The translations under genes were made by a program, and so were the position numbers. Of a stretch of DNA of 64,000 nt, positions 224 through 62,477 are shown one piece after another. How positions within the stretch are numbered: position 1 is the first letter of the stretch; the number at the start of each line of letters is the position of its first letter. The notes below the pieces were generated by a model that saw only the letters and a list, made by a program, of their open reading frames with translations, ran no database searches and was not told where the DNA came from. This stretch comes from an uncultured Candidatus Saccharibacteria bacterium. Lineage in GTDB: Bacteria; Patescibacteriota; Minisyncoccia; Phycocordibacterales; UBA918. The stretch is from contig CAZKFF010000001.1 of the NCBI GenBank assembly GCA_964552045.1, positions 120-64,119 of the forward strand. The letters are read 5' to 3'.

Positions 224-922
224 ATGCCTAAGAATAAGAAAGACACAGTTAAAGAATCGATCTCTCTCATAGAGTCTATTGCAAAAAAGAGACAGAGGCT
301 TTCTGTTGAGGAAGCAAGGGTTTTGATTAGTGAAATTACTAAACTCACAAAAATTCTCTTGGTTTCCAGTGGATTCCCTATAAGAGATGTGACCAGACTT
401 ACCACAAAACTTAGGGACGCTGGACGTAGGTCACCCCCGTGGACACCTTATTCAGGTCGAGTTCCGGGCAGACCTCAAGACGGAGCGGATGGCAATCGGC
501 GCTTGAGATGGCTATTTCCAAAAACCCATAAGTTTTATGCTGACGAAATTACAGCGACATTGGTCGAGGTGAAATATTATCTACAAGTACTGTCTATGAC
601 CAATGCGCCCAAGCTCCCAAAAGGTGCATTCGAGGGGACATTTGATTGGCTTGTGAAGCACAAAATATCACCCGGTGCGTATTTAGACCCAATACAGTTG
701 GTTCCAATTGATCTAAAAGTGATTCTTAATGAGTTAAGAAATCTCCACTCAGGGCATTTGGTGCCGCTAGATCGTAGTGGCAAGCATGAGCCAGCGAATA
801 CTTTTCTTGTCTATGCACGAAGTAACCAGCTTCAAGGAAATTTGACGCTAAATGAACTACTCGACTTAATGAAGCGAATCCTAGACAAACACCACAGCGA
901 GCTGCATGACGAGATTATATAG
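224..922 (+). CDS. hypothetical protein; putative type II restriction endonuclease, inferred from context
   Basis: 232-aa intact ORF directly downstream of the C-like HTH gene. Its stop overlaps the stop of the convergent MTase gene. No nuclease motif recognised by eye, so the assignment rests only on the C-R-M arrangement. Confidence 0.35.
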   Translation: MPKNKKDTVKESISLIESIAKKRQRLSVEEARVLISEITKLTKILLVSSGFPIRDVTRLTTKLRDAGRRSPPWTPYSGRVPGRPQDGADGNRRLRWLFPKTHKFYADEITATLVEVKYYLQVLSMTNAPKLPKGAFEGTFDWLVKHKISPGAYLDPIQLVPIDLKVILNELRNLHSGHLVPLDRSGKHEPANTFLVYARSNQLQGNLTLNELLDLMKRILDKHHSELHDEII

Positions 923-2909
923 CTAACACTTCCTCTAGTTCATTTATTCCAGAAGTGAGGTCGTCTATCGCTTTTTGCCGCGCACTCTCCCCGTCCCTTA
1001 TCCTTTTTACAACCTTTTCGTAAACTTTTTTGTCTTTTGGAACTGGAATTTTTAGATTACCAATGTACTCAGGCGTAATCTCATCAATTACAGAACCATA
1101 AACACCACGCGCTATTGTCTCTTGTGCATATCTCGTTTTAAGGAAAGCAAATAAATACTCCGATGCCATTTTTTCTTGGTCGGGAATAACTCTAATTACA
1201 TGTTCTGAAAATGCATAACCGTCCCATGCTTGAGGTACCGTCGAAACAATTCCGACAGAACCGCTTCTGGTAATAAGGATCCAGCCTTTTTTCACTTTCA
1301 ACTCTTCTATCTTTTTATTTTCCAGACTCATCCACTTATCAGCCCGTAATAGGAGTTGAGTGACGTTAGTTCCACCTAAGAAAGGGACGGCTTCTTGACT
1401 TGGCTCAACGTAGTTTCTTGCAAAACGCCCGGGAAAAAAAATATTTTTAACAACATTATTTAGCTCAACGTACTCCCACTGTTTGTTGTGAGTTTTGCTA
1501 GTAGGTTTGACTGCTTTATGTGATTTGTAATAGCGGGCGTCGAATCTCAAAAGAGGGTCTTCACTAATTTGTTTAGGTGTGACCTTGAAGCTAATTTCTG
1601 AACTAAATTTCTTTTTCTTTTTAAAGTTCGAGTAGTCAGCCTCAACAACATGAAAATCACTTAAAATTTGATCTGTAACAGAACCGTCACGCTCTCTAAC
1701 GTATGTAGGATTTCCTCGTCTATCGTGTCCAATCCACTTAGGAGTGGACATGAAGATTTCGGGATCCGAATCTAAATCTATTTGCTCTAAAGGTTTTTTC
1801 CTTCTTTTCAAAACCAGTAGCGACGCTTTAGTCCCAGTGTGAGGCTGAAAAGTTTCTGGCGGCAGATCAACAACAGCTAAAATCTGCGCGTGTCTCAGAA
1901 TCCATTGGCGGACAAAAAGAGTTTGTGGACCAGAAACAATCTGATAAGGAACAACTATTGCCAACCTACCGGCATCAGGTTTAAGAAGTCTTATATTTCT
2001 CTCAATAAACAAAATATCAGGAGCACGCTGTACAACGGCAGACTCGTCACCAAATAAACCAGTCCTCGTATATTTTTTTGCTAAGTCAAATTGAGAAAGG
2101 AGTTCCGGATCTTTGATCGTAATCTTTGTACCAAAAGGAGGGTTGGTTGCGAGGCAGGAATAACTGCTTTCGTTAAGTCTACTTGAGGGATCAATTTTGA
2201 GAGAATCGCCATTAGCAACAAAATCTACATCTTGAGCACCTAGCTGAAACGACATTGTTGAATTTGCTATTTCCGAAAGCTCTTTATCGAGCTCCTGTCC
2301 AGCAATTGACTCTTTTGCAAGTTTTCTTGCTTTTTCTTCATCACCGTCAGCCAGTTTTTTTATGTGTTTGAGTGCTGCCATCAAAAACCCCCCTGTGCCT
2401 GCACAAATATCAGCAAAGTTGTCTCCTTTTAGAGGATTGAAATCAAGTAGCTTTATAGATAATTGGGTGACTCTTTGGTCGGTAAAAAATTGACCTCCAT
2501 TTGATTTCGTCCAGTGTGATCTAAAGATTTCCATTGAGTCGCCAAATACATCTCGTTCGGAAGTGAGGATATCAATGTCAAAGATTTTTTCGTAAACATG
2601 CGCAATGTTTAAGTCAGTGAGATTTATCTCATTTCCATCCTCGTAAAATCTGGACTGCTTATTAGCTGCCCCAAAATTCTTTCTAACAAAGCTTGCTACA
2701 TTCTTCACATCAATAGCCTGACCATTTAATCTATGTCCCCTTGAGGAGAGTGGGGGTTTGTTGATTTTATTCTTCTCGGCATAAGCCAGAGCCCTATATA
2801 TTTTTCCAACCTCCTTAGCAATAGCTGTAGGAACCTTCACCGGAGAATTGGCGTATAGGTAGTCATAAATGGAGTTCACTCGTGATTCAAGATGTATGAT
2901 CGTACTCAT
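915..2909 (-). CDS. N6-adenine DNA methyltransferase (gamma class) with fused C-terminal HsdS-like target recognition domain
   Basis: Motif I DICAGTGGFLMAA and motif IV TNPPFG are present. The C-terminal about 180 aa (GWILITRSGSVGIVSTV...NLKIPVPKD) match the type I specificity-subunit TRD pattern. Start moved to MSTIIHLE (Met-15 of the track ORF), 7 nt after a TATAAT box. Confidence 0.8.
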   Translation of the reverse strand: MSTIIHLESRVNSIYDYLYANSPVKVPTAIAKEVGKIYRALAYAEKNKINKPPLSSRGHRLNGQAIDVKNVASFVRKNFGAANKQSRFYEDGNEINLTDLNIAHVYEKIFDIDILTSERDVFGDSMEIFRSHWTKSNGGQFFTDQRVTQLSIKLLDFNPLKGDNFADICAGTGGFLMAALKHIKKLADGDEEKARKLAKESIAGQELDKELSEIANSTMSFQLGAQDVDFVANGDSLKIDPSSRLNESSYSCLATNPPFGTKITIKDPELLSQFDLAKKYTRTGLFGDESAVVQRAPDILFIERNIRLLKPDAGRLAIVVPYQIVSGPQTLFVRQWILRHAQILAVVDLPPETFQPHTGTKASLLVLKRRKKPLEQIDLDSDPEIFMSTPKWIGHDRRGNPTYVRERDGSVTDQILSDFHVVEADYSNFKKKKKFSSEISFKVTPKQISEDPLLRFDARYYKSHKAVKPTSKTHNKQWEYVELNNVVKNIFFPGRFARNYVEPSQEAVPFLGGTNVTQLLLRADKWMSLENKKIEELKVKKGWILITRSGSVGIVSTVPQAWDGYAFSEHVIRVIPDQEKMASEYLFAFLKTRYAQETIARGVYGSVIDEITPEYIGNLKIPVPKDKKVYEKVVKRIRDGESARQKAIDDLTSGINELEEVLAI

Positions 2910-2920
2910 ACATAAATTAT

Positions 2921-2958
2921 ATGCAAAATTTGCACAATGCAAAATTTGCATTGTGCAT
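2921..2958 (-). promoter_or_regulatory. tandem 14-bp direct repeats (ATGCAAAATTTGCA x2, each near-palindromic) overlapping the -35/spacer of the MTase promoter; candidate operator. TATAAT lies 7 nt upstream of the ATG, suggesting a leaderless mRNA
   Basis: Read directly from the sequence: atgcaaaatttgcaca / atgcaaaatttgcatt, 17 nt apart. On the minus strand it reads tgcaaattttgcaTATAATttatgtATG. Confidence 0.45.
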
Positions 2959-3005: not shown

Positions 3006-3950
3006 TTACAGAACCTTACCTTTTGACCAGTACTCCTCAAACGCACTGCGAGCATCATCATAATTTTCTGACAAACTCACTTCTGATCGTTGTCCAGCAG
3101 ATATTGCATTCACGTTTGGTACGTTTCTCAGATACCCAACACCATCGAGAATCCATCGATCATGTGTGTCTCGTATCAATTTACTGTCTATAGTTGCCCA
3201 GGTTGTTTTGATACCTTTGTTTTCCATCTCCTGTTTGAACCGTTTGAAGTACCTTCGTACGTCGCTTCCCAAATTTACGTCTCCCATGTCCAAAGATAGA
3301 ATGCGTATTTCTTTTATTTTCTCTGCATCAGCAACACTCCATAACCATTCCAGCGCCTCTTTCTGGAAATGTTTATCGAGCCATGAAATGGATCCCTCAC
3401 ATTCTCCAAGTACTCGCTTTATCCAGAGGATGTTAGAGAATGGTCGCGATGGGTCAATAAAGATATTTTTTGGCGTATGAGGAGTATCGGGTGAGATAAG
3501 TACTTTCACAGCCCTAGTTTTCTTGTTGTAGGTGATAACACCTGCGTAATTCAAGAAGTCTAGGAAATGCGTCAATGGCTCGTTGGAATCATAGAACCAA
3601 AAGCCCGTAGCCTTTAGGACCGTAAGTACTTGATCAACAGTTACGTCCGATACTCCCCACAAATATTGCTGTAATGCAATCGTGGGAGGAAAGGATAGAA
3701 GCAAGTGCCTTAACATCTCGGTTTCCTCTCCATCACGGCGGATGTACAGCGACTCAAATATCGCTCGTCCGGCCTCAGAAAGCTCACCTGTAGCACCGAC
3801 ATCAAAAACTCCAAGCTCTTCCCAGAAAGTATAGTCGTCTCCCAGTTCATACCGATCTACTGAACCGTTCTCACCAGCCGCCTGTATATAAGGCAGCATT
3901 TTCTTCCAGTTATTCTGTGGCAGAAGTGTTGTCGTTTCCGTGTTTATCAT
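3006..3950 (-). CDS. hypothetical protein (island protein B), second gene of a two-gene operon of unknown function
   Basis: 314-aa ORF with AT-rich island composition. It overlaps the upstream ORF by 41 nt. An alternative start at Met-18 (3899) would leave a 10-nt gap. The C-terminal segment THDRWILDGVGYLRNVPNVN loosely resembles a PLD-type HxK..D..N signature but is not canonical. Confidence 0.55.
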   Translation of the reverse strand: MINTETTTLLPQNNWKKMLPYIQAAGENGSVDRYELGDDYTFWEELGVFDVGATGELSEAGRAIFESLYIRRDGEETEMLRHLLLSFPPTIALQQYLWGVSDVTVDQVLTVLKATGFWFYDSNEPLTHFLDFLNYAGVITYNKKTRAVKVLISPDTPHTPKNIFIDPSRPFSNILWIKRVLGECEGSISWLDKHFQKEALEWLWSVADAEKIKEIRILSLDMGDVNLGSDVRRYFKRFKQEMENKGIKTTWATIDSKLIRDTHDRWILDGVGYLRNVPNVNAISAGQRSEVSLSENYDDARSAFEEYWSKGKVL

Positions 3951-6122: not shown

Positions 6123-7295
6123 ATGAGGAAATTCTTCCTGCTGTTTGGGTTTCTCGCACTCCTTCTTTTGTTGTCAGCGCTGTATCTTCTCTGGGGAAGA
6201 TCACCCGCGGAAACACTGCCCACTTATTTTTCATATACTGATGAAGAACTTCAGATGATCCGTGGTCTCCATTCAGATAAGGCCATCACATTTGAAGATC
6301 TCCAGGCATGGGACGACGCCATCTTCAATCTGATCCAGGAGAACAAGACCGGTACAACAAAGGCCTCGCAGATATATACGTATCTTCTGGTGGCACAGCG
6401 CGATGCAGCTTTCATATCCTATAACGATACCGGCAAATTCCGCGGGAGCATTGATGCAGTTTCCAAGGGGGTTATCTGCGCATTCATGCCTGATGATTGC
6501 CTCTATATCACAACAGACAGCGATGCATATTCTGATGCGCTCGCTCAGATCGTGCTCGCTAAGGTCGAAAAGCGAATCGCGGATGACCAAAGCCAGCTGC
6601 ATACATATCCGCTGCAGTCAGAGGATCCCTATTGGTTGAACAAACGCGATGAAGCATTCAACGGACAGGACGTCGGATCATGGATGCCCTGGTCGATCGC
6701 CTCAGTTGCTGATTTCAATCTGCCTCCCCCGCCGGAGCTTGGTTCGGATGAACGAGCGCAGCAGCTGCAGGAAGTGCGGGATGCGGTTGACGGCATCACT
6801 GACGAACAGAAGCGTGCTGTTATCTATTGGGCTGACGGCCCGGGCACGAAGACCGCAGCGGCACAATGGCTCGAATTGGCAACTACGCACATGAAGGAAA
6901 CTGGCATGACCGACCTCCGTAGAATATTCATGATCAGATCGATCCTTGAGATGGCCATTGCTGACACGATCATCGCTTCTCACGATGTCAAATACACCTA
7001 CTGGGAGCGGCGCCCGGGCTCGCTCGATGCATCAATCGTGACGGTCATACCGACTCCGAACCATCCGAGCTATCCGTCAAACAGCGCAGCGATCGGCATG
7101 ACTGCGGCAACGGTCATGGCATACTTCTTCCCTGAAAAGTCATCAGAATGGCTCAGCATTGCCGAGGAAATAGGCAATACGCGCGTATGGTCCGGCATAC
7201 ACTTCCCACTTGACGTACAGGAGGGCTATGCACAGGGGAAAAAGATCGCCGAAGCGGTGCTCCAGAAAGAATTCGGGGACAGCCAGCCTCAGTAA
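6123..7295 (+). CDS. secreted PAP2-superfamily protein (acid phosphatase / vanadium-haloperoxidase-like)
   Basis: N-terminal signal/TM segment. PAP2 motifs present: KYTYWERRP (KX6RP), PSYPS and RVWSGIHFPLD (RX5HX3D). Confidence 0.7.
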   Translation: MRKFFLLFGFLALLLLLSALYLLWGRSPAETLPTYFSYTDEELQMIRGLHSDKAITFEDLQAWDDAIFNLIQENKTGTTKASQIYTYLLVAQRDAAFISYNDTGKFRGSIDAVSKGVICAFMPDDCLYITTDSDAYSDALAQIVLAKVEKRIADDQSQLHTYPLQSEDPYWLNKRDEAFNGQDVGSWMPWSIASVADFNLPPPPELGSDERAQQLQEVRDAVDGITDEQKRAVIYWADGPGTKTAAAQWLELATTHMKETGMTDLRRIFMIRSILEMAIADTIIASHDVKYTYWERRPGSLDASIVTVIPTPNHPSYPSNSAAIGMTAATVMAYFFPEKSSEWLSIAEEIGNTRVWSGIHFPLDVQEGYAQGKKIAEAVLQKEFGDSQPQ

Positions 7296-12227: not shown

Positions 12228-12791
12228 ATGAGGTATGACATGCCTTCCAAAACACGGCCAAAGCCTGCCTTCGCCTCACTTGCAGAAGCGGCAGAAGCAC
12301 AGAAGCGCATCGGGACATTGTTGCGGCAGATACACGCATGTGAAGATCAGTTTGAAAAGGAACGGGAAGTCATAGACAAGAAGGAAGACGACGCCATCCG
12401 TCCACTGCAGGCAGAAGCGCTGGAGCTCGGCAAACAGGTCTATGCGTTCGCCGTACAGCACAAAACCGAGCTTACCGACGGCGGCACACACAAGACCGTG
12501 AAACTTCCGATGCGCGCCGGCTCCTTCGCATGGTACACCACCCCTCCGGCGATCACGATCGAGAACGCACAGGAGGTGCTGCAGCGCATCAAGGAACTCG
12601 GCCTGCTGCGGTTCGTCAGGACCAAAGAGGAAGTGAACAGAGAGGCACTCCTCCAGGAACACACAATCGCCTCCACGATCGCGGGCGTGACAGTGTCCCG
12701 GCAGGACAAGTTCGCCATAAAACCAACCGGCGTCAAAGTACGACTTGAGTGCAATACGAAGACCAAGCGCTGGAAGATCGCCCTCCCGTAA
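12228..12791 (+). CDS. phage Mu Gam-like DNA-end-binding protein (Ku-like host-nuclease inhibitor family)
   Basis: From memory, ELTDGGTHKTVKL...LGLLRFVRTKEEVNREALLQE...IAGVTV aligns residue-for-residue with Mu Gam (ELTNGGKVKTANL...LGLQRFIRTKQEINKEAILLEP...VAGITV). Confidence 0.75.
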   Translation: MRYDMPSKTRPKPAFASLAEAAEAQKRIGTLLRQIHACEDQFEKEREVIDKKEDDAIRPLQAEALELGKQVYAFAVQHKTELTDGGTHKTVKLPMRAGSFAWYTTPPAITIENAQEVLQRIKELGLLRFVRTKEEVNREALLQEHTIASTIAGVTVSRQDKFAIKPTGVKVRLECNTKTKRWKIALP

Positions 12792-36373: not shown

Positions 36374-36489
36374 GTACGGAAGAAGTACACTGCGGGTGGT
36401 ATGAAATGTACAGAAAGCGCGAGGGAATACTGCAGTGTTACCTCATATTATCACGTTACACTGAGCGGTTTATTGAGTTATATACTGTA

Positions 36490-36518
36490 TTGACGTCGTA
36501 CAATCTCTCTGCTACTAT
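36490..36518 (+). promoter_or_regulatory. sigma70-like promoter (TTGACG-17 nt-TACTAT) about 10 nt upstream of the bL33 start codon
   Basis: Read directly from the sequence: ttgacgtcgtacaatctctctgcTACTATtgccccactATG. Confidence 0.4.
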
Positions 36519-36527
36519 TGCCCCACT

Positions 36528-36707
36528 ATGTCACAAGAACGACTCATACGAATGGTTACCAAGGGCGACGAGAACGGCGTCGGCAAAAACCATGTCTACT
36601 ACACAACCTACAACAACAAGGTCAAGAAAGACCCGAGCAAGAAGTACGAGGCTAAGAAGTACAATCCGGTCGCAAAGAAGCATACCGTGTACACGCAGAA
36701 GAAATAA
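36528..36707 (+). CDS. rpmG: 50S ribosomal protein bL33, non-zinc (C-) form; absent from the ORF track because it is only 59 aa
   Basis: MSQERLIRMVTKGDENGVGKNHVYYTTYNNKVKKDPSKKYEAKKYNPVAKKHTVYTQKK aligns with E. coli L33 ([46 protein letters not shown]). A terminator follows. Confidence 0.7.
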   Translation: MSQERLIRMVTKGDENGVGKNHVYYTTYNNKVKKDPSKKYEAKKYNPVAKKHTVYTQKK

Positions 36708-36708
36708 A

Positions 36709-36745
36709 GAAAAAGATCGCCTACAGGCGATCTTTTTCTTTATTC
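36709..36745. terminator. bidirectional terminator hairpin (aagatcgcc-tacag-ggcgatctt, then T-run)
   Basis: 9-bp stem. Serves both the + strand gene ending at 36707 and the convergent gene ending at 36740. Confidence 0.6.
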
Positions 36746-37771
36746 GTGTTCCATTGCCGATTCGTACGCTCCGGTATCCGCAAGGCTATTGAGGCGCAGT
36801 CGCTTCAGTAGTGCCTCCTGCGCTGCAGGAATGTTCTCTTCCTTGCCCTGCCAGGTCTTCAAAACCGGCTCCTCAATGCCGCGTGAATACGAGAATGCAA
36901 ACTCCCATGGCAGATCATCTCGCTTGTTCTCCTGTTCTGCGATCGCGTCGAGGTTCGCTGTCGCACGTTCGGGAGTCTGGCCACCGGAGAGGAATACAAT
37001 GCCGCCGACATTCTCCGGCACAGCGTTCTTGAAGGTGCGCAACGTGGCTTCGGCCACTTCCGCAGGAGCAGTCTGGTCCGGATGTTCGCTTCCGGCGAGG
37101 ACCATGCTGCTTTTGAGGATAAGGCCCCTGCAATCGACTTTTTGTTCATCGAGGGCGTCGAACACGATCTGGAGTGTCTGTGTAGTGACCGCCTCGGCTC
37201 TGCGCAGATCGTGGCTTCCTGCATGCAGCACCTCAGGTTCGACCATGGGAACGATACCCGCTTCCTGACAGAGCGCGGCATACCGTGCGAGTGAAAACGC
37301 ATCAGCCCGGATATTCTCGATGGTGGGGGTCGATGCGCCGATAGTAATGACCGCCCTCCATTTAGCTGCGCGCGCACCCATATTGTAGTAATCAGCCAGG
37401 CGTTTGCTCAGATCATCGAGCCCTTGGGTCACCACTTCCCCGGGAAAATTGGTGTGCGGTACAGTGCCCTTATCCACCTTGATGATGGGGATGATGCCCT
37501 TCGCGATCAAAAGGTCGGCGAACACCACTCCGTCATCAGTATGATTGCGGATGGTGCCGTCATGCATGATGACACCGGTGACATACTGCTCAATGCCCAT
37601 AGTGGTGAACAGAAGCTGGCGGTACTTCCGCCGCATCTCCGCTTCTTCCGGAACGCCCACAGCCTTCAGCTGCCTGTTCATTGATGTGGGACTCTGGTCC
37701 GCTGCCAAGATACCCTTTCCTTTTGATACGAGAGCCTGCGCAGTATCGTACAGTTTTTGATGATCAGCCAT
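36740..37771 (-). CDS. fba: fructose-bisphosphate aldolase, class I
   Basis: KGKGILAADQSPTS and overall class I FBA collinearity. Start taken at MADHQKLYDTAQ. Confidence 0.8.
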   Translation of the reverse strand: MADHQKLYDTAQALVSKGKGILAADQSPTSMNRQLKAVGVPEEAEMRRKYRQLLFTTMGIEQYVTGVIMHDGTIRNHTDDGVVFADLLIAKGIIPIIKVDKGTVPHTNFPGEVVTQGLDDLSKRLADYYNMGARAAKWRAVITIGASTPTIENIRADAFSLARYAALCQEAGIVPMVEPEVLHAGSHDLRRAEAVTTQTLQIVFDALDEQKVDCRGLILKSSMVLAGSEHPDQTAPAEVAEATLRTFKNAVPENVGGIVFLSGGQTPERATANLDAIAEQENKRDDLPWEFAFSYSRGIEEPVLKTWQGKEENIPAAQEALLKRLRLNSLADTGAYESAMEHE

Positions 37772-38594: not shown

Positions 38595-39335
38595 TTATTT
38601 CGCATTCGATGAACCAGTAATCTCCAAATACCGTTCTTCGAGGCTCTTCCCTCCCTCAAGGAACGATTCCTTCGTGCCCTCCGCGACGATTTTTCCATGG
38701 TTGATGATGCCGATGTACTCGCACAGATGCTGCACCTCCTCAAGATAATGCGACGTAAGGATGATCGTCTTGCCGCTTTCGTTCATCTCCTGCAGATAAC
38801 GCCATAGCTGGCGGCGCTGTTCGACATCGACCCCGGCAGTCGGCTCATCGAGAATAAGCAGATCAGGCGTATGCACCAGGGCCCGGCCGAGCATGACGCG
38901 GCGCTTGAGTCCGCCCGAGAGCTTCTGGAACTTCACATTGCGATGCTCCTCCAGATCGAACTGCGCGATCAGCTCATTGACCTTTGCGTCGCGCTGCGCT
39001 TTAGGCGTACCATAATAACCTGCCATGTAGTCCATCAGCTGCGCTGGGGTTGAGAAGATGTCAACATTGAACTCCTGCGGAGAGAGACCTACCTTTGTAC
39101 GAGCTTTTTTATATTCCTTCACTACATCGGTCCCATCAACGAGAATTGATCCGGAAGTCGGCTGGGCAATGCCGGTGATGCAGTGGATGGTCGTCGATTT
39201 CCCTGCACCATTCGGACCGAGCAGTCCGTAGAACGTTCCGCGTGGTATAGTCAGAGAAAGATCGTCAACGGCAACCTTATCGCCGTATCTCTTCGTCAGA
39301 TTTTTGATCTCGAGCATCGGTGTTGCGTTTTGCAT
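38595..39335 (-). CDS. ABC transporter ATP-binding protein
   Basis: Walker A GPNGAGKST, signature LSGGLKRR, Walker B LILDEPTAGVD. Confidence 0.9.
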   Translation of the reverse strand: MQNATPMLEIKNLTKRYGDKVAVDDLSLTIPRGTFYGLLGPNGAGKSTTIHCITGIAQPTSGSILVDGTDVVKEYKKARTKVGLSPQEFNVDIFSTPAQLMDYMAGYYGTPKAQRDAKVNELIAQFDLEEHRNVKFQKLSGGLKRRVMLGRALVHTPDLLILDEPTAGVDVEQRRQLWRYLQEMNESGKTIILTSHYLEEVQHLCEYIGIINHGKIVAEGTKESFLEGGKSLEERYLEITGSSNAK

Positions 39336-39349
39336 GGCGTAAGTTTACC

Positions 39350-40096
39350 ATGCGTTTTATGACGCAAGAAGAGCGGTGGCTTCTGGAGGCGTACGGCGGC
39401 AAAAAAACCTCCGGTTTTTTTGCCGCCTTCAAACGCCTGCAGCAGGGCGAACCGCTCGCGTATATCATCGGAAGCATTCCATTCCTCAATACAACCATTT
39501 ATCTTGATTCCCGGCCGCTTATTCCTCGCGCCGAAACAGAATATTGGGTATCGCTGGCAGTGGACGATATACGGCAATCCGGCATACAAGCGCCGAAAGT
39601 GCTCGACCTGTGCGCCGGCTCCGGCTGTATTGGTGTGGCTGTCGCTCATCACATTCCTCAGGCAATGGTGCACTTTGCTGAAATCGACCGGATACACCAC
39701 GACACGATCAGAAAGAATATCAGGAGCAATGGCATAGATGAGTCACATACGGACGTTATGGGCGGAAATCTGTTCGAAGCAGCACTCCCGCCGTACGATT
39801 ACATTCTTTCGAATCCTCCCTATATACCTGAGGGAAGCGAACGTGTCGCCCAAAGTGTCAGGGATCATGAGCCGAAGCTGGCTCTCTACGGCGGCAAAAA
39901 CGGGACAGATATCATTGCACGCATCCTCACACACACGCCGCATTATCTTGCCGCAACCGGCACCCTCTTTATCGAGCATGAACCCGAACAGTCTGCAGCG
40001 ATCGCCATACTTGCCCGTAAAAACGGTCTGGTCGCTGTTACACACAGCGACCAGTACGGCGTCTCTCGCTACAGCACAGTTGCTGTGGCACAATAG
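39350..40096 (+). CDS. prmC: release-factor glutamine N5-methyltransferase (PrmC/HemK family)
   Basis: GEPLAYIIG, RPLIPRAETE, VLDLCAGSGCIG and the catalytic NPPYI. Confidence 0.8.
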   Translation: MRFMTQEERWLLEAYGGKKTSGFFAAFKRLQQGEPLAYIIGSIPFLNTTIYLDSRPLIPRAETEYWVSLAVDDIRQSGIQAPKVLDLCAGSGCIGVAVAHHIPQAMVHFAEIDRIHHDTIRKNIRSNGIDESHTDVMGGNLFEAALPPYDYILSNPPYIPEGSERVAQSVRDHEPKLALYGGKNGTDIIARILTHTPHYLAATGTLFIEHEPEQSAAIAILARKNGLVAVTHSDQYGVSRYSTVAVAQ

Positions 40097-50211: not shown

Positions 50212-51303
50212 TTAGTCGAGCAATTCGAGTTTGCGCGTATCAGCGCTTACCACGCCTGCTATCGTACGGATATGCGGCATAAGCTCCGGCACACCCTCCT
50301 GGAGCGCCTGAAGCGACTGGTCGAGCATGTAGCGCACCTTCTCCTTCTTGAGCGCTGCTCCGAAGGCGCCTTCTTCGTGACGATGAAGCGCCGCGATCAA
50401 GAGCAGGACGCCAGGCTCCTTTGGGATCCGCCCAGCGTTCAGGTTGCCCTGGACGATGGACCCGGCGACCCTGACATTGTCAGGCCACGCCAGCGAATAC
50501 GGACCGATGATGAGCGCCGTATTCGGCATGTGCAGCCAGTCGAAGCCGCGCCCGACAGCGATCACCTGCTCACGGTGCTCAAAGTCCATAGGCTTCTTAC
50601 CGGAGTTCCGAACCTTCTGTACATGCCGGATGTTTCCCTCAACGAGCGGGATGAGGTCCATCAGCATGCGAGTGCTCATGTTCGGATACAACTCGTCGAG
50701 CAAAACCCGGATATCAATGTCCGTTATGGAGCTGTCGAGCTCAGCCACGCGCAGCTCTTTTCCGCCTTCGCCGTGGAAGATGAGCGATTCCTCGTCGGTC
50801 TCGATACCGATAGCGATCGCATATGCAGCTGGACCTTTGATGTCGGCACTACCCACAGCACGATTGAACTGCTCCTGCAGCTTGAACGCCTCGGCTTGTG
50901 CAGCGTCTGTATCGTACTCGAATCCGGCGCAGCCGCGATGATGATCCCCTTTCGAGAAATGATAGGAGCTCATCACCAGGACTTCACGCCCTTTGGCGAT
51001 CGGAAAGTTCACACCGTCCCGAATGAGTTCCTGGAAAAAGGGCCATCCATAGTCGAATTTGCCGCCGATGTTCCGGAACGGCTGCAGAATGCCCGGCGGG
51101 GTTTCCGTGTACAGGGAAATGTTAAGCCGACCATCCATGCACTTCAGGACGAGAATCTCTGTCGGATGCTGTGCACGGTACAGGCGACGTTTCAGTTGTG
51201 CATCAGGATTGACGAATGCTGCGCTCTGCGCCTCATTGCGGTCCATAATGAACTTGACAATATCCCCCTCAATGACTCTATTGTTGTAGTTTTCCATAAA
51301 CAT
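50212..51303 (-). CDS. hypothetical protein with beta-carbonic-anhydrase-like metal-binding motifs
   Basis: KCMDGR (CxDxR) and HHRGCAG (HxxC) at a beta-CA-like spacing. Long divergent C-terminal region. Confidence 0.35.
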   Translation of the reverse strand: MFMENYNNRVIEGDIVKFIMDRNEAQSAAFVNPDAQLKRRLYRAQHPTEILVLKCMDGRLNISLYTETPPGILQPFRNIGGKFDYGWPFFQELIRDGVNFPIAKGREVLVMSSYHFSKGDHHRGCAGFEYDTDAAQAEAFKLQEQFNRAVGSADIKGPAAYAIAIGIETDEESLIFHGEGGKELRVAELDSSITDIDIRVLLDELYPNMSTRMLMDLIPLVEGNIRHVQKVRNSGKKPMDFEHREQVIAVGRGFDWLHMPNTALIIGPYSLAWPDNVRVAGSIVQGNLNAGRIPKEPGVLLLIAALHRHEEGAFGAALKKEKVRYMLDQSLQALQEGVPELMPHIRTIAGVVSADTRKLELLD

Positions 51304-55582: not shown

Positions 55583-58500
55583 CTATCCCTCTTTCTGGAC
55601 ATCTTCGATCATCTGGGATTTCTGTGATCCCTTGAAACCGGTACCGGCAGGGATAAGCTTTCCGATGATCACATTCTCCATCAATCCGGCAAGATTGTCG
55701 TTGCTTCCCTTCACTGCCGCATTGATCAGAACACGGGTTGTGTTCTGGAATGACGCTGCGGAGAGGAAGCTCTTTCTTGAGAGCGAAGACTCGGTGATGC
55801 CCATGATGAGCTTGCTTGCCTTCGCCGGATCCTTTCCTTCGGCAGCCAATGCATTGTTCGCCTCAACAAAGATCCACTCCTCGACAACCTCTCCCGGAGT
55901 GAAGTGGCTGTCGCCGGAGTTGGTGATCTTTACGCGGCTCATCATCTGCTTGACGATGAGCTCAATATGCTTGCGCGCAATGGTCACACCCTGGAGCTCA
56001 TAGATCTTGTTGATCTCAGAGATGATGTATTCCTGCGTCTGTTCCTTCGTACCGTATTTGAACATGTCCGGCAGGTATGCGGAACCGTCCGTGAGGAGCT
56101 GTCCGGCTTTGACATTCTCGCCCTTGGAGACGATCACGGTTCGTCGATAATTCGCCTCGTATTCGATGATATCGCTCTTCTTCGGCGCATACTTCGAATC
56201 CTTGGCAGGAACCACCACGATGATCTTCTCTTTTCCTTCCGTGCGGATCTCGCTTACAAAACCGTCGGTCTTGGAGATGACTGCAGGGTTCTTCGGAAGA
56301 CGCTTTTCAAAGACCTCCTCTACGCGGGGCAGACCCTGCGTCACGTCTCCGCCGACTGCCGAGGTACCTCCGGCGTGCTTTGTGTTCATCGTGAGCTGTG
56401 TACCTGGTTCACCGATCGCCTGTGCAGCGACCGTACCAACAGCCTCGCCGATATCGACGAGCGCATTGGTGGTGAGGTCCACTCCGTAACACTGCTGGCA
56501 GACACCGCGCAGTGTATTGCAGGTCATAGGTGAACGGACGACAACCGACGCTGCGGTCGATCCTTCAACAGCGAGCGCGTCGCGCCGCGTGAGCATGTGA
56601 CCCTTCTTGAACAAGATGGTACCATCCTGGTCAACAACATCAGCGGCAAGCACGCGGCCTTTGATCGCCTTCGAGAATGCGATCTGAATTCCTGATGCGC
56701 TGAGGCGTCCGATAGAAACTCCTTCCTTGGTCTTGCAGTCGGCCTCAGTAACGATCGCATCCTGTGCAACGACGAAGAGACGTCGAGTAAGGTATCCTGC
56801 TTTCGCTGTCTGGAGCGCGGTGTCCGCAAGTCCCTTGCGGGAGCCGTGCGTGGTGATGAAGTACTCGATCGGACTCATACCTTCCTTCATGGAAGAAATG
56901 ACCGGAAATTCGAGCGTTTCACCGCGCGTGTTGACAATGAGTCCCTTCATACCGATCATCTGTGCGATCTGCCGCATTGATCCTCGTGCTCCTGACTTCC
57001 AGAGGTCATATGCAGAGCCATTCGGATTCATGCGGTCAGGGATGACCTCCTCGAGCGAACTCTTGGTACGGTGCCAGATCTCGATGATCATACGGCGTCG
57101 TTCGTCGCGGGACAGAAGTCCCTGCTCGAAATGCTCTATGATTGCACGCTCTTCTTCGCGTGCGTCTGCGATGATCTGCTGCTTTTCCTTGGGCACAATC
57201 ACTTCGTCAATGCCCCAAGTTGTTCCGGAAACAGTTGCATATTTGAAACCGAATTTCTTGATCTTGTTTACAACAGATGGAACCACATCAACTCCCTGAT
57301 CGTCGATAAGATCGAGTACGACCCCGAAGAGATCCCGCTGGGTCACCAGCTGGTTAATGTATGCATGATCAGACGGAAGTACGCTGTTGAATAAGAGACG
57401 TCCAACCGATGTTTCAAAGAGCTGGCCTTCAAATTGCGCATACTTTGGCGTGTTTGTTGCGAGTACCTTTATCTTTGCACGGAAGTCAACAATGCCATAG
57501 TCATACGCATTGATCGCATCGTTTGGTGAGGCGAAGAATTTGTTTTCCCCTTTCGCTCCCTCGATTATCTTCGTCATCCAGAATGAGCCGAGCGCCATAT
57601 CCATGAGCGATTCAGACACCACCGGCTCGCTTGAACCCGGCTTGAGCACGTTCTTGTTTGCTGAGATGATCTCCCGGGCTTCCATCTGCGCCTCGTCTGA
57701 AAGCGGCACATGCACTGCCATCTGGTCTCCGTCGAAGTCAGCATTGAATGCTTTACATACCAATGGATGCACCTGGATGGCGTTGCCTTCAATCAGTACC
57801 GGGCGGAATGCCTGGATACCCTGTCGGTGGAGTGTCGGCGCACGGTTAAGGAGTACATGCTTACTTGAGATCACTTCCTCAAGGATCGCCCATACTTCCG
57901 GCACGCCGTCCTCAATGAGACGCCCAGCGCCGCGGATGTTGTACGCAAGTTCCTGTCGGAGAAGCTTGGAGATCACGAACGGACGGAACAGCTCGAGCGC
58001 CATATGCTTCGGCAGACCGCACTGGTCGAGCTCGAGGTCTGGACCGATGACGATCACTGAACGGCCTGAATAGTCCACACGCTTACCAAGGAGGTTCTGA
58101 CGGAAGTATCCCTGCTTTGACTTCAGATAATCAGAAAGCGACTTCAGCGGACGGCGCTGCGCCTGGCTCATCGCTGAGTACGCGGTGTTTCCGTGGCGGA
58201 TCGAGTTGTCGATAAGCGCGTCAACCGCTTCCTGGAGGATACGCTTCTCGTTTCGGAGAATAACGTCAGGCGCCATGATGTCAATGAGTTTCTTGAGGCG
58301 ATTGTTTCGGTTGATCACCCGGCGGTAAAGATCGTTGAGGTCTGATGACGCATGGCGTCCTCCTTCAAGCGCGACCATAGGACGCAATGCTGGCGGGATG
58401 ACCGGAATACGGTTGAGGAACATCCATTCAGGACGAACGCCTGAGTGGATCATGCCGCGTATGAGATTGAGCCGCTTATCGAGCTTTGCCCGGTCAGCGA

Positions 58501-59242
58501 CGCCAGCCTTTTCGCGCTGGGCCTCAAGTTCTTCCTTCAGTTTAGTGAGATCAATGTTCTTGAAGAGCTCGTAGATGGACTCTGCACCGATCTTCGCCTC
58601 AAAGAGCGTCGAATATTTCACTGAGAACTTGTGGAATGAGGTCTCGTCGAGAACGGTACCCTGCGTGAGACTCTCGATCTCGTTCTTTGTCTCGGTCATG
58701 CGTGTCTTCAGTGCCTCGCGAGCTTCTTCGTTCTGCAATTCCTTGAGCTTTGATTTGTACTCAGTATCGAGCTCTTTCAGAAGACGTGCACGCTCCTCTT
58801 CTGAAACTTTCGTGACAATGTATCCTGCAAAGTAGATGACCTTCTCGACGGAAGCTGCGGTGATGCCGAGGATCAATGCAATACGGCTTGGCACGCCGCG
58901 CAAGAACCAGATGTGTGAGACCGGTACGCAGAGCTCAATGTGACCCATGCGTTCGCGACGGACGATAGCGCGAGTGACTTCAACACCGCACTTCTCACAG
59001 ACGATACCCTTGTAGCGGATGCCGCGGTACTTCTTACACGAACATTCGTAGTCCTCAACAGGTCCAAAGATGCGCTCGTCGAACAGGCCGTGCTTTTCAG
59101 GGCGCTGCGTTCGGTAGTTGATGGTCTCCGGCTTGGTGACCTCGCCATATGACCACTCAAGGATCTTGTCAGGCGATGCGAGCTTGAGGCTCACTTCGCT
59201 GAATTGAGTGGGGGTTCCTCGTTTTTGTGTATTTGGATTCAT
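55583..59242 (-). CDS. rpoC: DNA-directed RNA polymerase subunit beta'
   Basis: 1219 aa. NADFDGD catalytic motif, zinc-binding Cys clusters, overall collinearity. Confidence 0.95.
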   Translation of the reverse strand: MNPNTQKRGTPTQFSEVSLKLASPDKILEWSYGEVTKPETINYRTQRPEKHGLFDERIFGPVEDYECSCKKYRGIRYKGIVCEKCGVEVTRAIVRRERMGHIELCVPVSHIWFLRGVPSRIALILGITAASVEKVIYFAGYIVTKVSEEERARLLKELDTEYKSKLKELQNEEAREALKTRMTETKNEIESLTQGTVLDETSFHKFSVKYSTLFEAKIGAESIYELFKNIDLTKLKEELEAQREKAGVADRAKLDKRLNLIRGMIHSGVRPEWMFLNRIPVIPPALRPMVALEGGRHASSDLNDLYRRVINRNNRLKKLIDIMAPDVILRNEKRILQEAVDALIDNSIRHGNTAYSAMSQAQRRPLKSLSDYLKSKQGYFRQNLLGKRVDYSGRSVIVIGPDLELDQCGLPKHMALELFRPFVISKLLRQELAYNIRGAGRLIEDGVPEVWAILEEVISSKHVLLNRAPTLHRQGIQAFRPVLIEGNAIQVHPLVCKAFNADFDGDQMAVHVPLSDEAQMEAREIISANKNVLKPGSSEPVVSESLMDMALGSFWMTKIIEGAKGENKFFASPNDAINAYDYGIVDFRAKIKVLATNTPKYAQFEGQLFETSVGRLLFNSVLPSDHAYINQLVTQRDLFGVVLDLIDDQGVDVVPSVVNKIKKFGFKYATVSGTTWGIDEVIVPKEKQQIIADAREEERAIIEHFEQGLLSRDERRRMIIEIWHRTKSSLEEVIPDRMNPNGSAYDLWKSGARGSMRQIAQMIGMKGLIVNTRGETLEFPVISSMKEGMSPIEYFITTHGSRKGLADTALQTAKAGYLTRRLFVVAQDAIVTEADCKTKEGVSIGRLSASGIQIAFSKAIKGRVLAADVVDQDGTILFKKGHMLTRRDALAVEGSTAASVVVRSPMTCNTLRGVCQQCYGVDLTTNALVDIGEAVGTVAAQAIGEPGTQLTMNTKHAGGTSAVGGDVTQGLPRVEEVFEKRLPKNPAVISKTDGFVSEIRTEGKEKIIVVVPAKDSKYAPKKSDIIEYEANYRRTVIVSKGENVKAGQLLTDGSAYLPDMFKYGTKEQTQEYIISEINKIYELQGVTIARKHIELIVKQMMSRVKITNSGDSHFTPGEVVEEWIFVEANNALAAEGKDPAKASKLIMGITESSLSRKSFLSAASFQNTTRVLINAAVKGSNDNLAGLMENVIIGKLIPAGTGFKGSQKSQMIEDVQKEG

Positions 59243-59264
59243 ACTTTTTACTTTCTATTGAGGA

Positions 59265-62200
59265 CTAATAATTTCGTTCTTCATGCTCTTCCCGCTTCAG
59301 ATCGACATCAAGCGAGAGTCCGCGGAGCTGATTAACAAGCACATTGAATGCAGCCGGCGTGTGCGGATGCGCGATCTTCTCGCCGCGCACGATCGCATCG
59401 AATGCTGCTGAACGTCCAACAATATCGTCTGACTTGATGGTGAGCATTTCGCGAAGCGTATACGCCGCTCCATATCCGAGCAATGCCCATACTTCCATTT
59501 CTCCGAATCGCTGACCGCCGATCTGTGCCTTACCTCCGAGCGGCTGCTGGGTAATAAGCGAGTAGGGGCCGATAGATCGCATGTGGATCTTGTCCTCCAC
59601 CATGTGATGGAGCTTGAGGATATACATGTAGCCCACTGCTGTACGCTGCTCGAACTCCTCACCGGTACGTCCGTCGCGGAGCTGGATCTTTCCGTCTTCC
59701 GGAATGCCTGCTTCTGCGAGCTCTGCCTTGATCTCGGCTTCAGTTGCCGATGCAAATGGCGGCACGATCGCCTGATAACCGAGCGTATTTGCTGCCATAC
59801 CGAGGTGAAGCTCAAGGATCTGCCCGAGGTTCATACGTGACGGAACTCCCAGCGGGGTGAGAATGATATCCACCGGACGTCCGTCTTCCATGTATGGCAT
59901 ATCTTCTTCAGGAAGTATACGTGAGATGACTCCCTTGTTACCGTGTCGTCCTGCGAGCTTGTCTCCCACGGAGACATTACGCACCTGTGCGATCGTGATA
60001 TGGATCTTCTTGATGACACCGCTTTCGAGCTGGTCGCCGTTTTCGCGCGAGAATATCTTGACGCCGATGACGCGGCCGCGCTTTCCTGCCTCAAGGCGCA
60101 GTGAAGAATCCTTTACATCCTTCGCCTTCTCTCCGAAGATAGAACGCAAAAGCCGCTCTTCTGGAGTAAGCTGCGCTTCTCCCTTCGGCGTTACTTTACC
60201 GACGAGGATATCGCCGGGACGAACTTCAGCGCCGATGCGGATGATGCCGTTCTCATCAAGGTTGCGAAGTTTCAGTTCGCTCACGTTCGGAATGTCTGGA
60301 GTGGTGACTTCAGGTCCAAGCTTCGTGTCACGTACGGAGACATCGAGTTCATCGAGGTGGATCGTTGCAAACTTGCTGTTCTTAACGAGACGCTCAGAGA
60401 TGATGATCGCGTCTTCGTAGTTGGCGCCGTTCCAGCTCATGAATGCGACGAGCGCATTCTGTCCGACCGCCATCTGTCCCTGGTCTGTCGATGAGGTGTC
60501 AGCAAGCAGATCGCCGCGCTTTACCTTCTGTCCGACTGTCACTGCTGCCCGGTGATAGAATGCCGAGAAGTCGTTGGTACGCTGGAATGTGGTGAGCTCA
60601 TACTCATGCTTCTTCCCTTCCTTATTCTTGACCACAATATGTCGCGCATCAGCTTCGACAACCTCTCCTGCTTCTGCAGCGATGATAACGCGTCCGGTGT
60701 CCTTTGCGGCCATGCCTTCAATACCTGTTGCTACAATTGGCGCCTCAGGCACGATGCACGGAGTCGCCTGCTTCTGCATGTTCGAACCCATGAGCGTACG
60801 GTTCGCGTCGTCGTGATTGAGGAACGGGATCATCGAGGTTGCCACAGAAAATGCCTGGTTGGTTGCAATATCCATGTAGTCGACCTCCTTGCGTGAAGCA
60901 AGGAGCGGCTCGCCGTTTCGTCGTGCTTCGACGATGTCAGGCTTGATCTTCCCCTTTTCATCCACCTCTACCGCAGCATGGGCAATGACAAAGCCTTCTT
61001 CTTCATGCGCATTGAGATACACCACCTCTCCGGTAAGTACGCCCTTTTCAACCTTCACATACGGGGTCTCGATGATACCGAAGCGGTTCACGCGTGCGTA
61101 CATCGAAAGACGCAGGATCAGACCGATGTTTGGTCCTTCCGGCGTATGGATCGGACAGAGTCGTCCGTAGTGGCTTGGATGCACGTCGCGCACCTCAAAG
61201 CCGGCGCGCTCGCGCGTGAGTCCGCCTGGTCCAAGTGCTGAGAGCGTACGGAGTCCTTCGAGCTCTGCGAGGATGTTCTGCTGTGGCATGAACTGTGAGA
61301 GCTGGTTGGTAGTGAAGAATTCCTTGATCGCAGCCTGGAGCGGTCGCGGATTGATGATCTGCATTGGAAGCGATGTCTCTGCCTCGATCGTGGACATGCG
61401 GTCCTGGATATTTCGCTTCATGCGGGTCATACCGACGCGGACGCGCTGCTGGAGCATTTCGCCGAAGTAGCGAACACGACGGAAGCCGAGGTGGTCGATG
61501 TCATCAGGCTGGGCTCCAGGCTCATGATTGAGCTTGATGATGTTCGAGATGATCAGACGCAAATCCTCAAGCGTGATCGTACGTTCGTCTGTGGCCTTCT
61601 TGTCCGTTGGACGTCCATTGCGCTCATTGAAATGATGCCGTCCGATCTCTGAGAGATCGTAACGGTCAGCCGAGAAGATCGAGTTCACGAACTCGCGCGC
61701 ATTCTCGACGGTCGCAAGGTCCCCGTCGCGGAGACGCTTATATATCTCGATGTATGCATCCTCAACCGTCTTCGACGGATCCTTCGCAAGGGTGGCCTTT
61801 ATGTATTCGCTCCCCCGCTCCACGTCCTTGAAGAGGTTCACCATCTCCTTTTCATCGCTCAATCCGAATACCCGGAGGAGTGAGGTCACCGGGATCTTCT
61901 TCTTGCGGTCGATCTTGATGTAGATGACTCCATCATGCTCAGACTCGATCTCAACCCATGCGCCGCGTGCCGGGATGATCTTGGCGCCGAAGTAGGTGCG
62001 GCCTTTCAGTTCCTGTGCAGTGAAGAATACACCGTACGAACGCGCGAGCTGCGGTACGATGACACGCTCCACGCCATTGATGATGAATGTGCCATGTTCG
62101 GTCATGACTGGAATATCTGTCATGAAGATCTCCTGGTCCTTTTCGCTTTCAAATGTCTTGTTCTTCAGGACCACCGTCGCACGCAACGGAGCATCGTACG

Positions 62201-62477
62201 TGAGCTTATTCTCCTTAGCGTATGCAGGCGTGCACTTCGGATTTCCGAGTTCGTATTTCTTGAACTTGAGTTCGAACTTCTTGTCAGAATAATCGGCGAT
62301 AGGAGAAAACTCCTGGAAGATCTGCTTGAGTCCTTCCTCCACGAACCACTTGAACGATTCACGCTGCGGCTCAATAAGGTCCGGCAGGTCAACGAGCGGA
62401 TCCTTCGCGAGCTTGAATCGCTTCTGGGGCATCGCTCCCACAGAAGCGTACTCCTCTGCCTTTGGCTTGGTATTCAT
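59265..62477 (-). CDS. rpoB: DNA-directed RNA polymerase subunit beta
   Basis: 1070 aa. Conserved rif-region and catalytic segments. Ends 22 nt upstream of rpoC. Confidence 0.95.
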   Translation of the reverse strand: MNTKPKAEEYASVGAMPQKRFKLAKDPLVDLPDLIEPQRESFKWFVEEGLKQIFQEFSPIADYSDKKFELKFKKYELGNPKCTPAYAKENKLTYDAPLRATVVLKNKTFESEKDQEIFMTDIPVMTEHGTFIINGVERVIVPQLARSYGVFFTAQELKGRTYFGAKIIPARGAWVEIESEHDGVIYIKIDRKKKIPVTSLLRVFGLSDEKEMVNLFKDVERGSEYIKATLAKDPSKTVEDAYIEIYKRLRDGDLATVENAREFVNSIFSADRYDLSEIGRHHFNERNGRPTDKKATDERTITLEDLRLIISNIIKLNHEPGAQPDDIDHLGFRRVRYFGEMLQQRVRVGMTRMKRNIQDRMSTIEAETSLPMQIINPRPLQAAIKEFFTTNQLSQFMPQQNILAELEGLRTLSALGPGGLTRERAGFEVRDVHPSHYGRLCPIHTPEGPNIGLILRLSMYARVNRFGIIETPYVKVEKGVLTGEVVYLNAHEEEGFVIAHAAVEVDEKGKIKPDIVEARRNGEPLLASRKEVDYMDIATNQAFSVATSMIPFLNHDDANRTLMGSNMQKQATPCIVPEAPIVATGIEGMAAKDTGRVIIAAEAGEVVEADARHIVVKNKEGKKHEYELTTFQRTNDFSAFYHRAAVTVGQKVKRGDLLADTSSTDQGQMAVGQNALVAFMSWNGANYEDAIIISERLVKNSKFATIHLDELDVSVRDTKLGPEVTTPDIPNVSELKLRNLDENGIIRIGAEVRPGDILVGKVTPKGEAQLTPEERLLRSIFGEKAKDVKDSSLRLEAGKRGRVIGVKIFSRENGDQLESGVIKKIHITIAQVRNVSVGDKLAGRHGNKGVISRILPEEDMPYMEDGRPVDIILTPLGVPSRMNLGQILELHLGMAANTLGYQAIVPPFASATEAEIKAELAEAGIPEDGKIQLRDGRTGEEFEQRTAVGYMYILKLHHMVEDKIHMRSIGPYSLITQQPLGGKAQIGGQRFGEMEVWALLGYGAAYTLREMLTIKSDDIVGRSAAFDAIVRGEKIAHPHTPAAFNVLVNQLRGLSLDVDLKREEHEERNY

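Follow-up and report, generated by a model that had tools for sequence, protein, structure and literature searches.

Within the 64,000-nucleotide stretch of DNA analyzed here (the window), a short open reading frame (ORF) at 36528..36707 on the plus strand raises the question of whether it is a gene at all and, given a product resembling the ribosomal protein bL33 in a form devoid of zinc-binding cysteines (C-), whether it supplies the everyday ribosome or a substitute reserved for zinc scarcity. A first-pass annotation had read the frame as a missed rpmG gene behind a near-leaderless promoter and had hinted at the second of these roles. We consider it probable, with good confidence, that this is the housekeeping C- bL33 gene of a member of the Patescibacteria (CPR; Parcubacteria/Kaiserbacteria-type), transcribed as a unit of its own with a near-leaderless mRNA and translated from Met1 into 59 amino acids.

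For comparison, GTDB genomes were scanned, one per species, and 176 of them encode this bL33 subtype; the best 80 of the 176 were examined (L006-L085), and the window together with these 80 related species-level Patescibacteria loci (~20 kb each, 1.23 Mb in total) forms the comparison set. Direct support from the data below extends to the identity of the protein, its C- state, the selection acting on it, and its conserved promoter, start context and terminator.

Identity of the reading frame as a cysteine-free bL33

The ORF comprises 59 codons and a TAA stop, its translation (MSQERLIRMVTKGDENGVGKNHVYYTTYNNKVKKDPSKKYEAKKYNPVAKKHTVYTQKK) contains no cysteine, and matches to the product were found in Pfam, NCBIfam and the PDB. 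The Pfam Ribosomal_L33 search that had been proposed as a check on the L33 assignment was passed: the window protein scored 26.2 bits against PF00471 (E 1e-5; gathering cutoff, 25), and all 31 aligned members of its family matched the same model, with a best E of 2.8e-13. Scores against the more exacting NCBIfam models fell short, narrowly for the rpmG_bact equivalog TIGR01023 (22.9 bits against a cutoff of 23.95), a miss that we attribute to the divergent N-terminal loop, and well below the cutoff for NF001860 (24.5 bits against 50). A phmmer search of all PDB chains, listed up to E 10, gave 38 matches; 37 of these are L33, among them every match below E 0.8, the best being Deinococcus radiodurans L33 at E 2e-6; with a profile of the 31 family members the best E fell to 4e-8 and all 23 matches were L33. 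The motif string on which the L33 assignment had originally been based is broadly right, except that the window reads KYE in place of KLE and GKNH in place of G.GH.

Structure prediction agrees with these matches. An AF2 model built from the family alignment (pLDDT 75) contains four strands, at residues 5-11, 23-28, 41-46 and 51-57, and its top Foldseek matches in the PDB are all ribosome entries, bacterial and mitochondrial. On the ribosome chains the model superposes over 55-59 columns with TM scores of 0.6-0.77 and an rmsd of 2-2.8 A, the Foldseek E-values of ~0.01 reflecting the short length of the protein; matched entries in which the chain is named L33 include 7unr_5, 6spb_3, 9h91_1, 7jil_c and 5dm6_1, among several. 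The predicted four-stranded, zinc-ribbon-like fold of the window protein thus matches bL33 chains. With Pfam, the PDB matches and the predicted fold in agreement, the earlier L33 assignment holds, and 36528..36707 is a genuine rpmG gene encoding bL33.

So short an ORF, with marginal scores against curated models, might be taken for a chance frame or a decayed remnant without expression, a reading to which we assign next to no probability. Disruption of the frame in close relatives had been named as the observation that would speak against the gene, and instead the ORF is unbroken in all 81 sequences (the window and the best 80 of 176 species-level loci), with 59 amino acids in 78 of them and 60 in three. 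Mean column entropies across the 81 are 0.38, 0.31 and 1.20 bits for codon positions 1, 2 and 3, and this concentration of variation at the third position points to purifying selection on the bL33 protein. Conservation of promoter and terminator in relatives, described below, and a predicted fold that is that of bL33 speak against a chance frame as well, and the comparative data effectively refute this explanation.

The gene is also already on record. A search of ~5.8 billion proteins yielded 63 homologue clusters; all those carrying an organism name belong to Patescibacteria, several are named L33 by NCBI or JGI, and 28 of the 63 lack a precomputed Pfam match. The identical 59-aa protein has been called on 28 public contigs, and NCBI gives proteins of relatives the name 50S ribosomal protein L33. 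The description of the gene as missed is accurate for the ORF-length cutoff used in the first-pass annotation and for nothing beyond it: both the gene and its exact protein are in public databases, which makes the assignment correct but ordinary.

Its closest likeness is to the L33 of E. coli (RpmG) and of D. radiodurans (PDB 1nwx, 7a0r), with which the window protein shares the PF00471 family, the predicted four-stranded fold and the absence of all four zinc-ligand cysteines. With D. radiodurans L33 it further shares a near-identical C-terminal motif, K-K-Y-(D/N)-P-V-A-K-K-H-x-V-(Y/F). Relative to E. coli L33, however, it carries three additional residues (KGD) after strand 1, giving a GDENGVGKxH loop, and three more (NKV) in the next loop, YNNKVKKDPSKK; these two insertions account for its marginal HMM scores. 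Aligned to Thermus thermophilus L33, which we take as the cysteine-containing (C+) reference for the ligand positions, the four ligand sites of the window protein are occupied by N16, G19, N46 and A49. Both CxxC zinc knuckles are therefore absent, bearing out the earlier description of a zinc-free C- form. Among the 81 orthologues, 75 have no cysteine and six have a single cysteine at a non-ligand position. The window bL33 hence belongs to the C- type, in common with the only L33 of E. coli or D. radiodurans, and, like these proteins, is expected to need no zinc for folding.

Promoter, start codon and transcript end of rpmG

Upstream of rpmG, a -35 hexamer TTGACG (36490..36495, plus strand) and an extended -10 element TGcTACTAT (36510..36518, plus strand; hexamer TACTAT at 36513-36518) are separated by a 17-nt spacer, with 9 nt left between the end of the -10 hexamer and the ATG. 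The TTGACG-17-TACTAT promoter that had been placed about 10 nt before the start codon is accordingly present and recurs in orthologues. Judged from the window alone it would carry little weight: the pattern TTGAC-N17-19-TANNNT-N8-10-ATG occurs once in the window against 0.26 expected, 24 of 100 shuffles contain it one or more times, and significance from the single sequence is thus absent. The case for a real promoter lies instead in its conservation across 80 orthologous upstream regions. Among the best 80 of 176, TTGAC is found 37-40 nt before the ATG in 78 of 80 distinct upstream regions, and the consensus between -10 and ATG is nnnnCCACT. TANNNT ends 9 nt before the start in 43 of the 80 loci and 10 nt before it in 31, and the TG extension and a T-rich stretch just upstream are likewise conserved (n = 80). 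By comparison, the spacer and the region upstream of the -35 hold less than 0.35 bits per position across the 80 orthologues, i.e., are unconserved.

The 9 nt between the -10 element and the rpmG ATG (TGCCCCACT) contain no Shine-Dalgarno sequence. Across the 80 loci the four bases preceding the ATG are C in 73, A in 76, C in 65 and T in 77, and a -10 element ending 9-10 nt upstream leads one to expect transcription to start at the conserved A at -3. In the window this places the predicted start site at A36525 (C-A at -4/-3), with a predicted leader ACT at 36525..36527 (plus strand); we infer a leader of ~3 nt (2-4 nt), too short to accommodate a Shine-Dalgarno sequence. A strong sigma-70-type promoter so near the ATG would yield an mRNA beginning ~3 nt before the AUG, on which translation of rpmG would start by a leaderless or 5'-end-dependent route, and its expression is expected to be constitutive. 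In strictly leaderless genes the distance from the -10 to the ATG is typically 6-7 nt, and that of rpmG, at 9-10 nt, is longer. The arrangement resembles the leaderless mRNAs of Actinobacteria and Deinococcus-Thermus in the proximity of the -10 to the ATG, in the absence of a Shine-Dalgarno sequence and in being common to many genes of the lineage. It differs from them in that the rpmG -10 ends 9-10 rather than ~6-7 nt before the ATG, which predicts a leader of 2-4 nt, and in that the promoter has a full -35 together with the TG extension. The predicted near-leaderless mRNA also sets the window gene apart from the rpmG of E. coli and D. radiodurans.

Conservation at this site continues into the coding sequence. 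At 36524-36538 and its equivalents in the 80 related loci, CCACT-ATG-TCA-CA is conserved beyond what the protein requires: 76 of 78 sequences encode Ser2 by TCA, whereas six different codons are found for Ser11, a difference that indicates a nucleotide-level constraint on the 5' end of rpmG mRNA. A constraint of this kind, covering the first 12 nt of the transcript, might reflect tuned 5'-end-dependent initiation, the initial transcribed sequence or autoregulation by bL33. Neither Rfam at gathering thresholds nor a tRNA search gave a match anywhere in the window, which indicates that no known ribosomal-protein leader RNA is present in it. One GTDB genome (locus L006, CBFGXL010000001.1) encodes a bL33 identical at every residue to that of the window, yet its DNA differs clearly from window positions 36460-36527 outside the -35, the -10 and CACT, and the pair illustrates constraint confined, as it appears, to these elements. 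In one other locus (L031, minus strand, position 3147 after reverse complementation), a ribosomal protein S16-like gene (MLMMRLQRFGRKNDPSFRIV...) is preceded by TTGACC-N17-TAGTCT and then tctggCCACTAT-ATG, with CCACT context as in rpmG, which hints at a start-site motif common to ribosomal protein promoters.

Public calls of this exact gene disagree about the position of the start codon, giving products of either 59 or 51 aa (P0008, P0075-P0080). The shorter calls begin at an internal ATG (Met9; 36552..36554, plus strand); one of them, P0008, is identical throughout to residues 9-59 and carries the JGI name "ribosomal protein L33". A 51-aa product from 36552, which would give the mRNA a leader of ~27 nt, has the choice of public gene callers on several contigs, that JGI name and a length (51 aa) typical of L33 in its favor. 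The comparative data nonetheless favor the longer form. The N-terminus MSQ[DE]xL[IV][KR] is conserved among orthologues, with M1, S2, Q3 and L6 near-invariant, so that residues 1-8 show protein-level conservation; most orthologues carry Leu or Ile at residue 9 and consequently lack the alternative Met9 start. The first strand of the L33 fold is made up of residues 5-11 in the AF2 model, and these align with the residues before VSSAG in E. coli. No Shine-Dalgarno sequence lies ahead of 36552, and the conserved promoter would place the AUG of Met1 at the 5' end of the mRNA. We therefore regard the 51-aa product as quite unlikely and Met1 as very likely the true start of a 59-aa protein, the 51-aa calls, which lack the conserved first strand, then being N-terminally truncated; our reading of Met9 is that it is not a real start.

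At its other end the gene runs into a hairpin. The predicted bidirectional intrinsic terminator at ~36703..36744 is a perfect hairpin of 19-20 bp (-28.5 kcal/mol; z, -6.97 against shuffles) with the core GATCGCC-TACA-GGCGATC, an A-rich 5' arm holding the rpmG stop codon (36705-36707) and a T-rich 3' arm holding the stop codon of a convergent aldolase gene (36740-36742). Most orthologous loci have a strong hairpin starting at the stop codon or close to it (median -22.6 kcal/mol), typically with an A-rich 5' and a T-rich 3' arm, the conservation being one of structure and not of sequence; these hairpins were judged by energy and position, a criterion requiring a T tract after the stem being unfit where the tract lies inside a long stem. 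The 36703-36744 hairpin was absent from the output of a simple terminator scan of the window. The hairpin terminator claimed to follow the gene is thus corroborated by its energy and by analogous hairpins in most orthologous loci, and fits a bidirectional intrinsic terminator common to rpmG and the aldolase gene, at which transcription of rpmG would end. With its promoter, ~3-nt leader, 59 codons and terminator, rpmG is a self-contained unit.

The convergent neighbor (36740..37771, minus strand) encodes a class I fructose-bisphosphate aldolase (Pfam Glycolytic on the public gene call) and is the downstream neighbor of rpmG in 72 of the related loci (best 80 of 176). The surrounding order is conserved, running through GH15, a small ORF, GH57 and a GT4/GT5 glycosyltransferase (minus strand) to rpmG (plus strand), and beyond it through the class I aldolase, an ABC-2 permease and an ABC ATPase (minus strand) to a methyltransferase (plus strand). 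In contrast to the rpmG of E. coli and D. radiodurans, the window gene is monocistronic, between a glycogen-type cluster and fba, and it stands in neither the rpmB-rpmG nor the rpmG-secE-nusG context. The classical slot upstream of secE-nusG-rplK could not be recognized either: rplJ/L and rplK/A were not found upstream of the rpoB and rpoC genes of the window, and no homologue of L11, NusG, L28 or Fur was found in the window or the 80 related loci. The rpoB and rpoC genes lie at 55583-62477 (minus strand), with genes for a membrane protein and trmD upstream of them.

The rest of the window holds two-component systems, restriction-modification genes, helicases, HisRS, UppP, rpoB/rpoC and trmD, among others. 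Three further features have no relation to rpmG: a type I restriction-modification protein in which methylase and specificity parts are fused (N6_Mtase and Methylase_S; 915-2951, minus strand), a phage Mu Gam-like protein (12228-12791, plus strand) and a product weakly similar (E 4e-6) to the carboxysome-shell carbonic anhydrase catalytic domain (50212-51303, minus strand).

The question of a zinc-limitation paralogue

The C- state of the protein and the solitary position of rpmG, apart from other ribosomal protein genes, are what one would also expect of a zinc-independent paralogue, repressed by Zur, made only in zinc scarcity and replacing a Cys-containing bL33 encoded elsewhere. Such L33 paralogues, C- and under Zur control, are well established in other bacteria (e.g., PMC5007448 and PMC5912738). 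Among them are B. subtilis RpmGC and the RpmG1 of the mycobacterial AltRP operon, which the window protein resembles in being a Cys-free L33; it differs from both in that its gene has no Zur box, no linkage to zinc genes or to other C- paralogue genes, and no Cys-containing partner in the 64-kb window plus 1.23 Mb of related loci.

Each of these points was followed in the comparison set. The Zur box suggested as a check did not materialize: no operator over the rpmG promoter is conserved across the 80 orthologous promoters (best 80 of 176), in which only the -35, the extended -10 and CACT-ATG are conserved, with no palindrome resembling a Zur box. No zinc-uptake, COG0523, Fur-family or other C- paralogue genes were found within the 64-kb window, and no Fur-family match was found in any of the sequence examined; the neighbors of rpmG (GH15, GH57, the GT4/GT5 glycosyltransferase, class I aldolase, ABC-2 transporter and methyltransferase) are of glycogen-type and glycolytic character. 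Neither an operator nor a gene linkage of the kind that marks Zur-regulated paralogues is therefore seen at the window rpmG. The other proposed check, a search for a second, Cys-containing rpmG, also came back empty, with no further copy in six-frame translations of the 64-kb window and the 80 related loci (1.23 Mb, ~20 kb per genome). It was run by phmmer with three L33 queries (E. coli, C-; T. thermophilus, C+; Bacillus-like, C+) and with the family profile; extra matches at E 0.3-1 were noise, and the search has little power genome-wide. One locus of this bL33 type came from each of the 80 listed genomes (best 80 of 176).

At 36421-36463, in the interval separating rpmG from the divergent glycosyltransferase gene, two inverted repeats overlap, one a 14-nt palindrome and the other of 15-1-15 form with 80% complementarity. 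As a Zur box of rpmG they were rejected, being situated upstream of the promoter (more than 25 nt from the -35) in a region that is unconserved across orthologous loci over the 60 nt examined. Their minus strand reads TGATAATAT, which is probably the promoter or operator of the divergent GT-GH57-GH15 operon of glycogen type.

Evidence from outside the lineage points the same way. A profile search of 1.84 billion representative proteins gave 48 matches at E up to 0.001, and all 22 of these that were retrieved are C- in the second knuckle, although some keep a single cysteine in the first. As the nearest outgroup L33s are likewise C-, the C- state of the bL33 of this lineage seems to go back to the ancestor of a wide group and does not look like the sign of a back-up copy of recent origin. 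A sole C- L33 is, moreover, normal in many bacteria, E. coli and D. radiodurans among them. The hint of a zinc-limitation paralogue thus finds no support in the 64-kb window and the 1.23 Mb of related loci, which show no conserved operator, no zinc or Zur genes near rpmG and no second copy, or in the likewise C- nearest outgroups, and we consider a Zur-repressed stand-in very unlikely here. The housekeeping reading is preferred, under which the window rpmG would be the main or only bL33 gene of the organism.

Possible short leaders across the lineage and the reach of the subtype

Because several unrelated gene families show a promoter immediately before the start codon, the near-leaderless feature is not specific to rpmG. 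We surveyed the window and 79 related loci (L007-L085), comprising 1,241 ORFs of at least 100 aa and 1,537 candidate ATG starts, for an extended -10 element (TGNTANNNT). The element ended 6, 7, 8, 9 or 10 nt before the candidate ATG in 47, 52, 26, 65 and 23 cases, respectively, i.e., at 213 of the 1,537 candidates, compared to ~5-10 at other offsets, although syntenic orthologues inflate these counts. Internal in-frame ATGs, scaled to the same number as a control, gave 0-5 per offset, and Shine-Dalgarno 4-mers were only weakly enriched at candidate starts in the same survey. Genes with promoter-adjacent starts encode the aldolase, TruB, UppP, an ABC ATPase and an RNase-H-like exonuclease, among others; examples of such ATGs in the window are at 6123, 30598 and 44834/44837 (plus strand) and at 39335 and 37771 (minus strand).

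At 39335-39350 the start codons of the ABC ATPase (ATG at 39335, minus strand) and of the methyltransferase (ATG at 39350, plus strand) diverge from positions only 14 nt apart. The intervening 14-mer, GGCGTAAGTTTACC, is -10-like on both strands, with TAAACT 6 nt from the ATG on the minus strand and TAAGTT 4 nt from it on the plus strand, and would combine two leaderless promoters face to face in a compact space.

From the survey, mRNAs with no leader or a very short one would seem to be common in this Patescibacteria lineage. A wider proposal is that, throughout the Parcubacteria/Kaiserbacteria type, a large part of the genes that lead operons are transcribed from extended -10 promoters ending 6-10 nt before the start codon, which would make translation of leaderless mRNAs or of mRNAs with 2-4-nt leaders a main route of initiation, with rpmG as one instance; we put this forward as a tentative and, for now, rather doubtful possibility. 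A literature search for papers describing leaderless mRNAs in CPR bacteria found none.

As a single gene, the window rpmG is what one would expect for bL33 in a CPR bacterium, and its significance is small. The subtype to which it belongs nevertheless sits at the limits of detection, passing the Pfam model by ~1 bit and failing TIGR01023 by ~1 bit. Given such threshold-level scores, and with 28 of the 63 homologue clusters lacking a Pfam match, HMM surveys of ribosomal protein loss in CPR bacteria could undercount it. Tsurumaki et al. (2022; PMC9297842) report loss of bL33 in Peregrinibacteria, Gracilibacteria and Absconditabacteria, not in Parcubacteria, and the threshold caveat bears on surveys of this kind. 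In the start-codon disagreement between public calls of this gene, the comparative data favor 59 aa over 51 aa. Widespread leaderless initiation in the lineage, if true, could improve the prediction of gene starts in CPR bacteria, and could be worth a study of its own.
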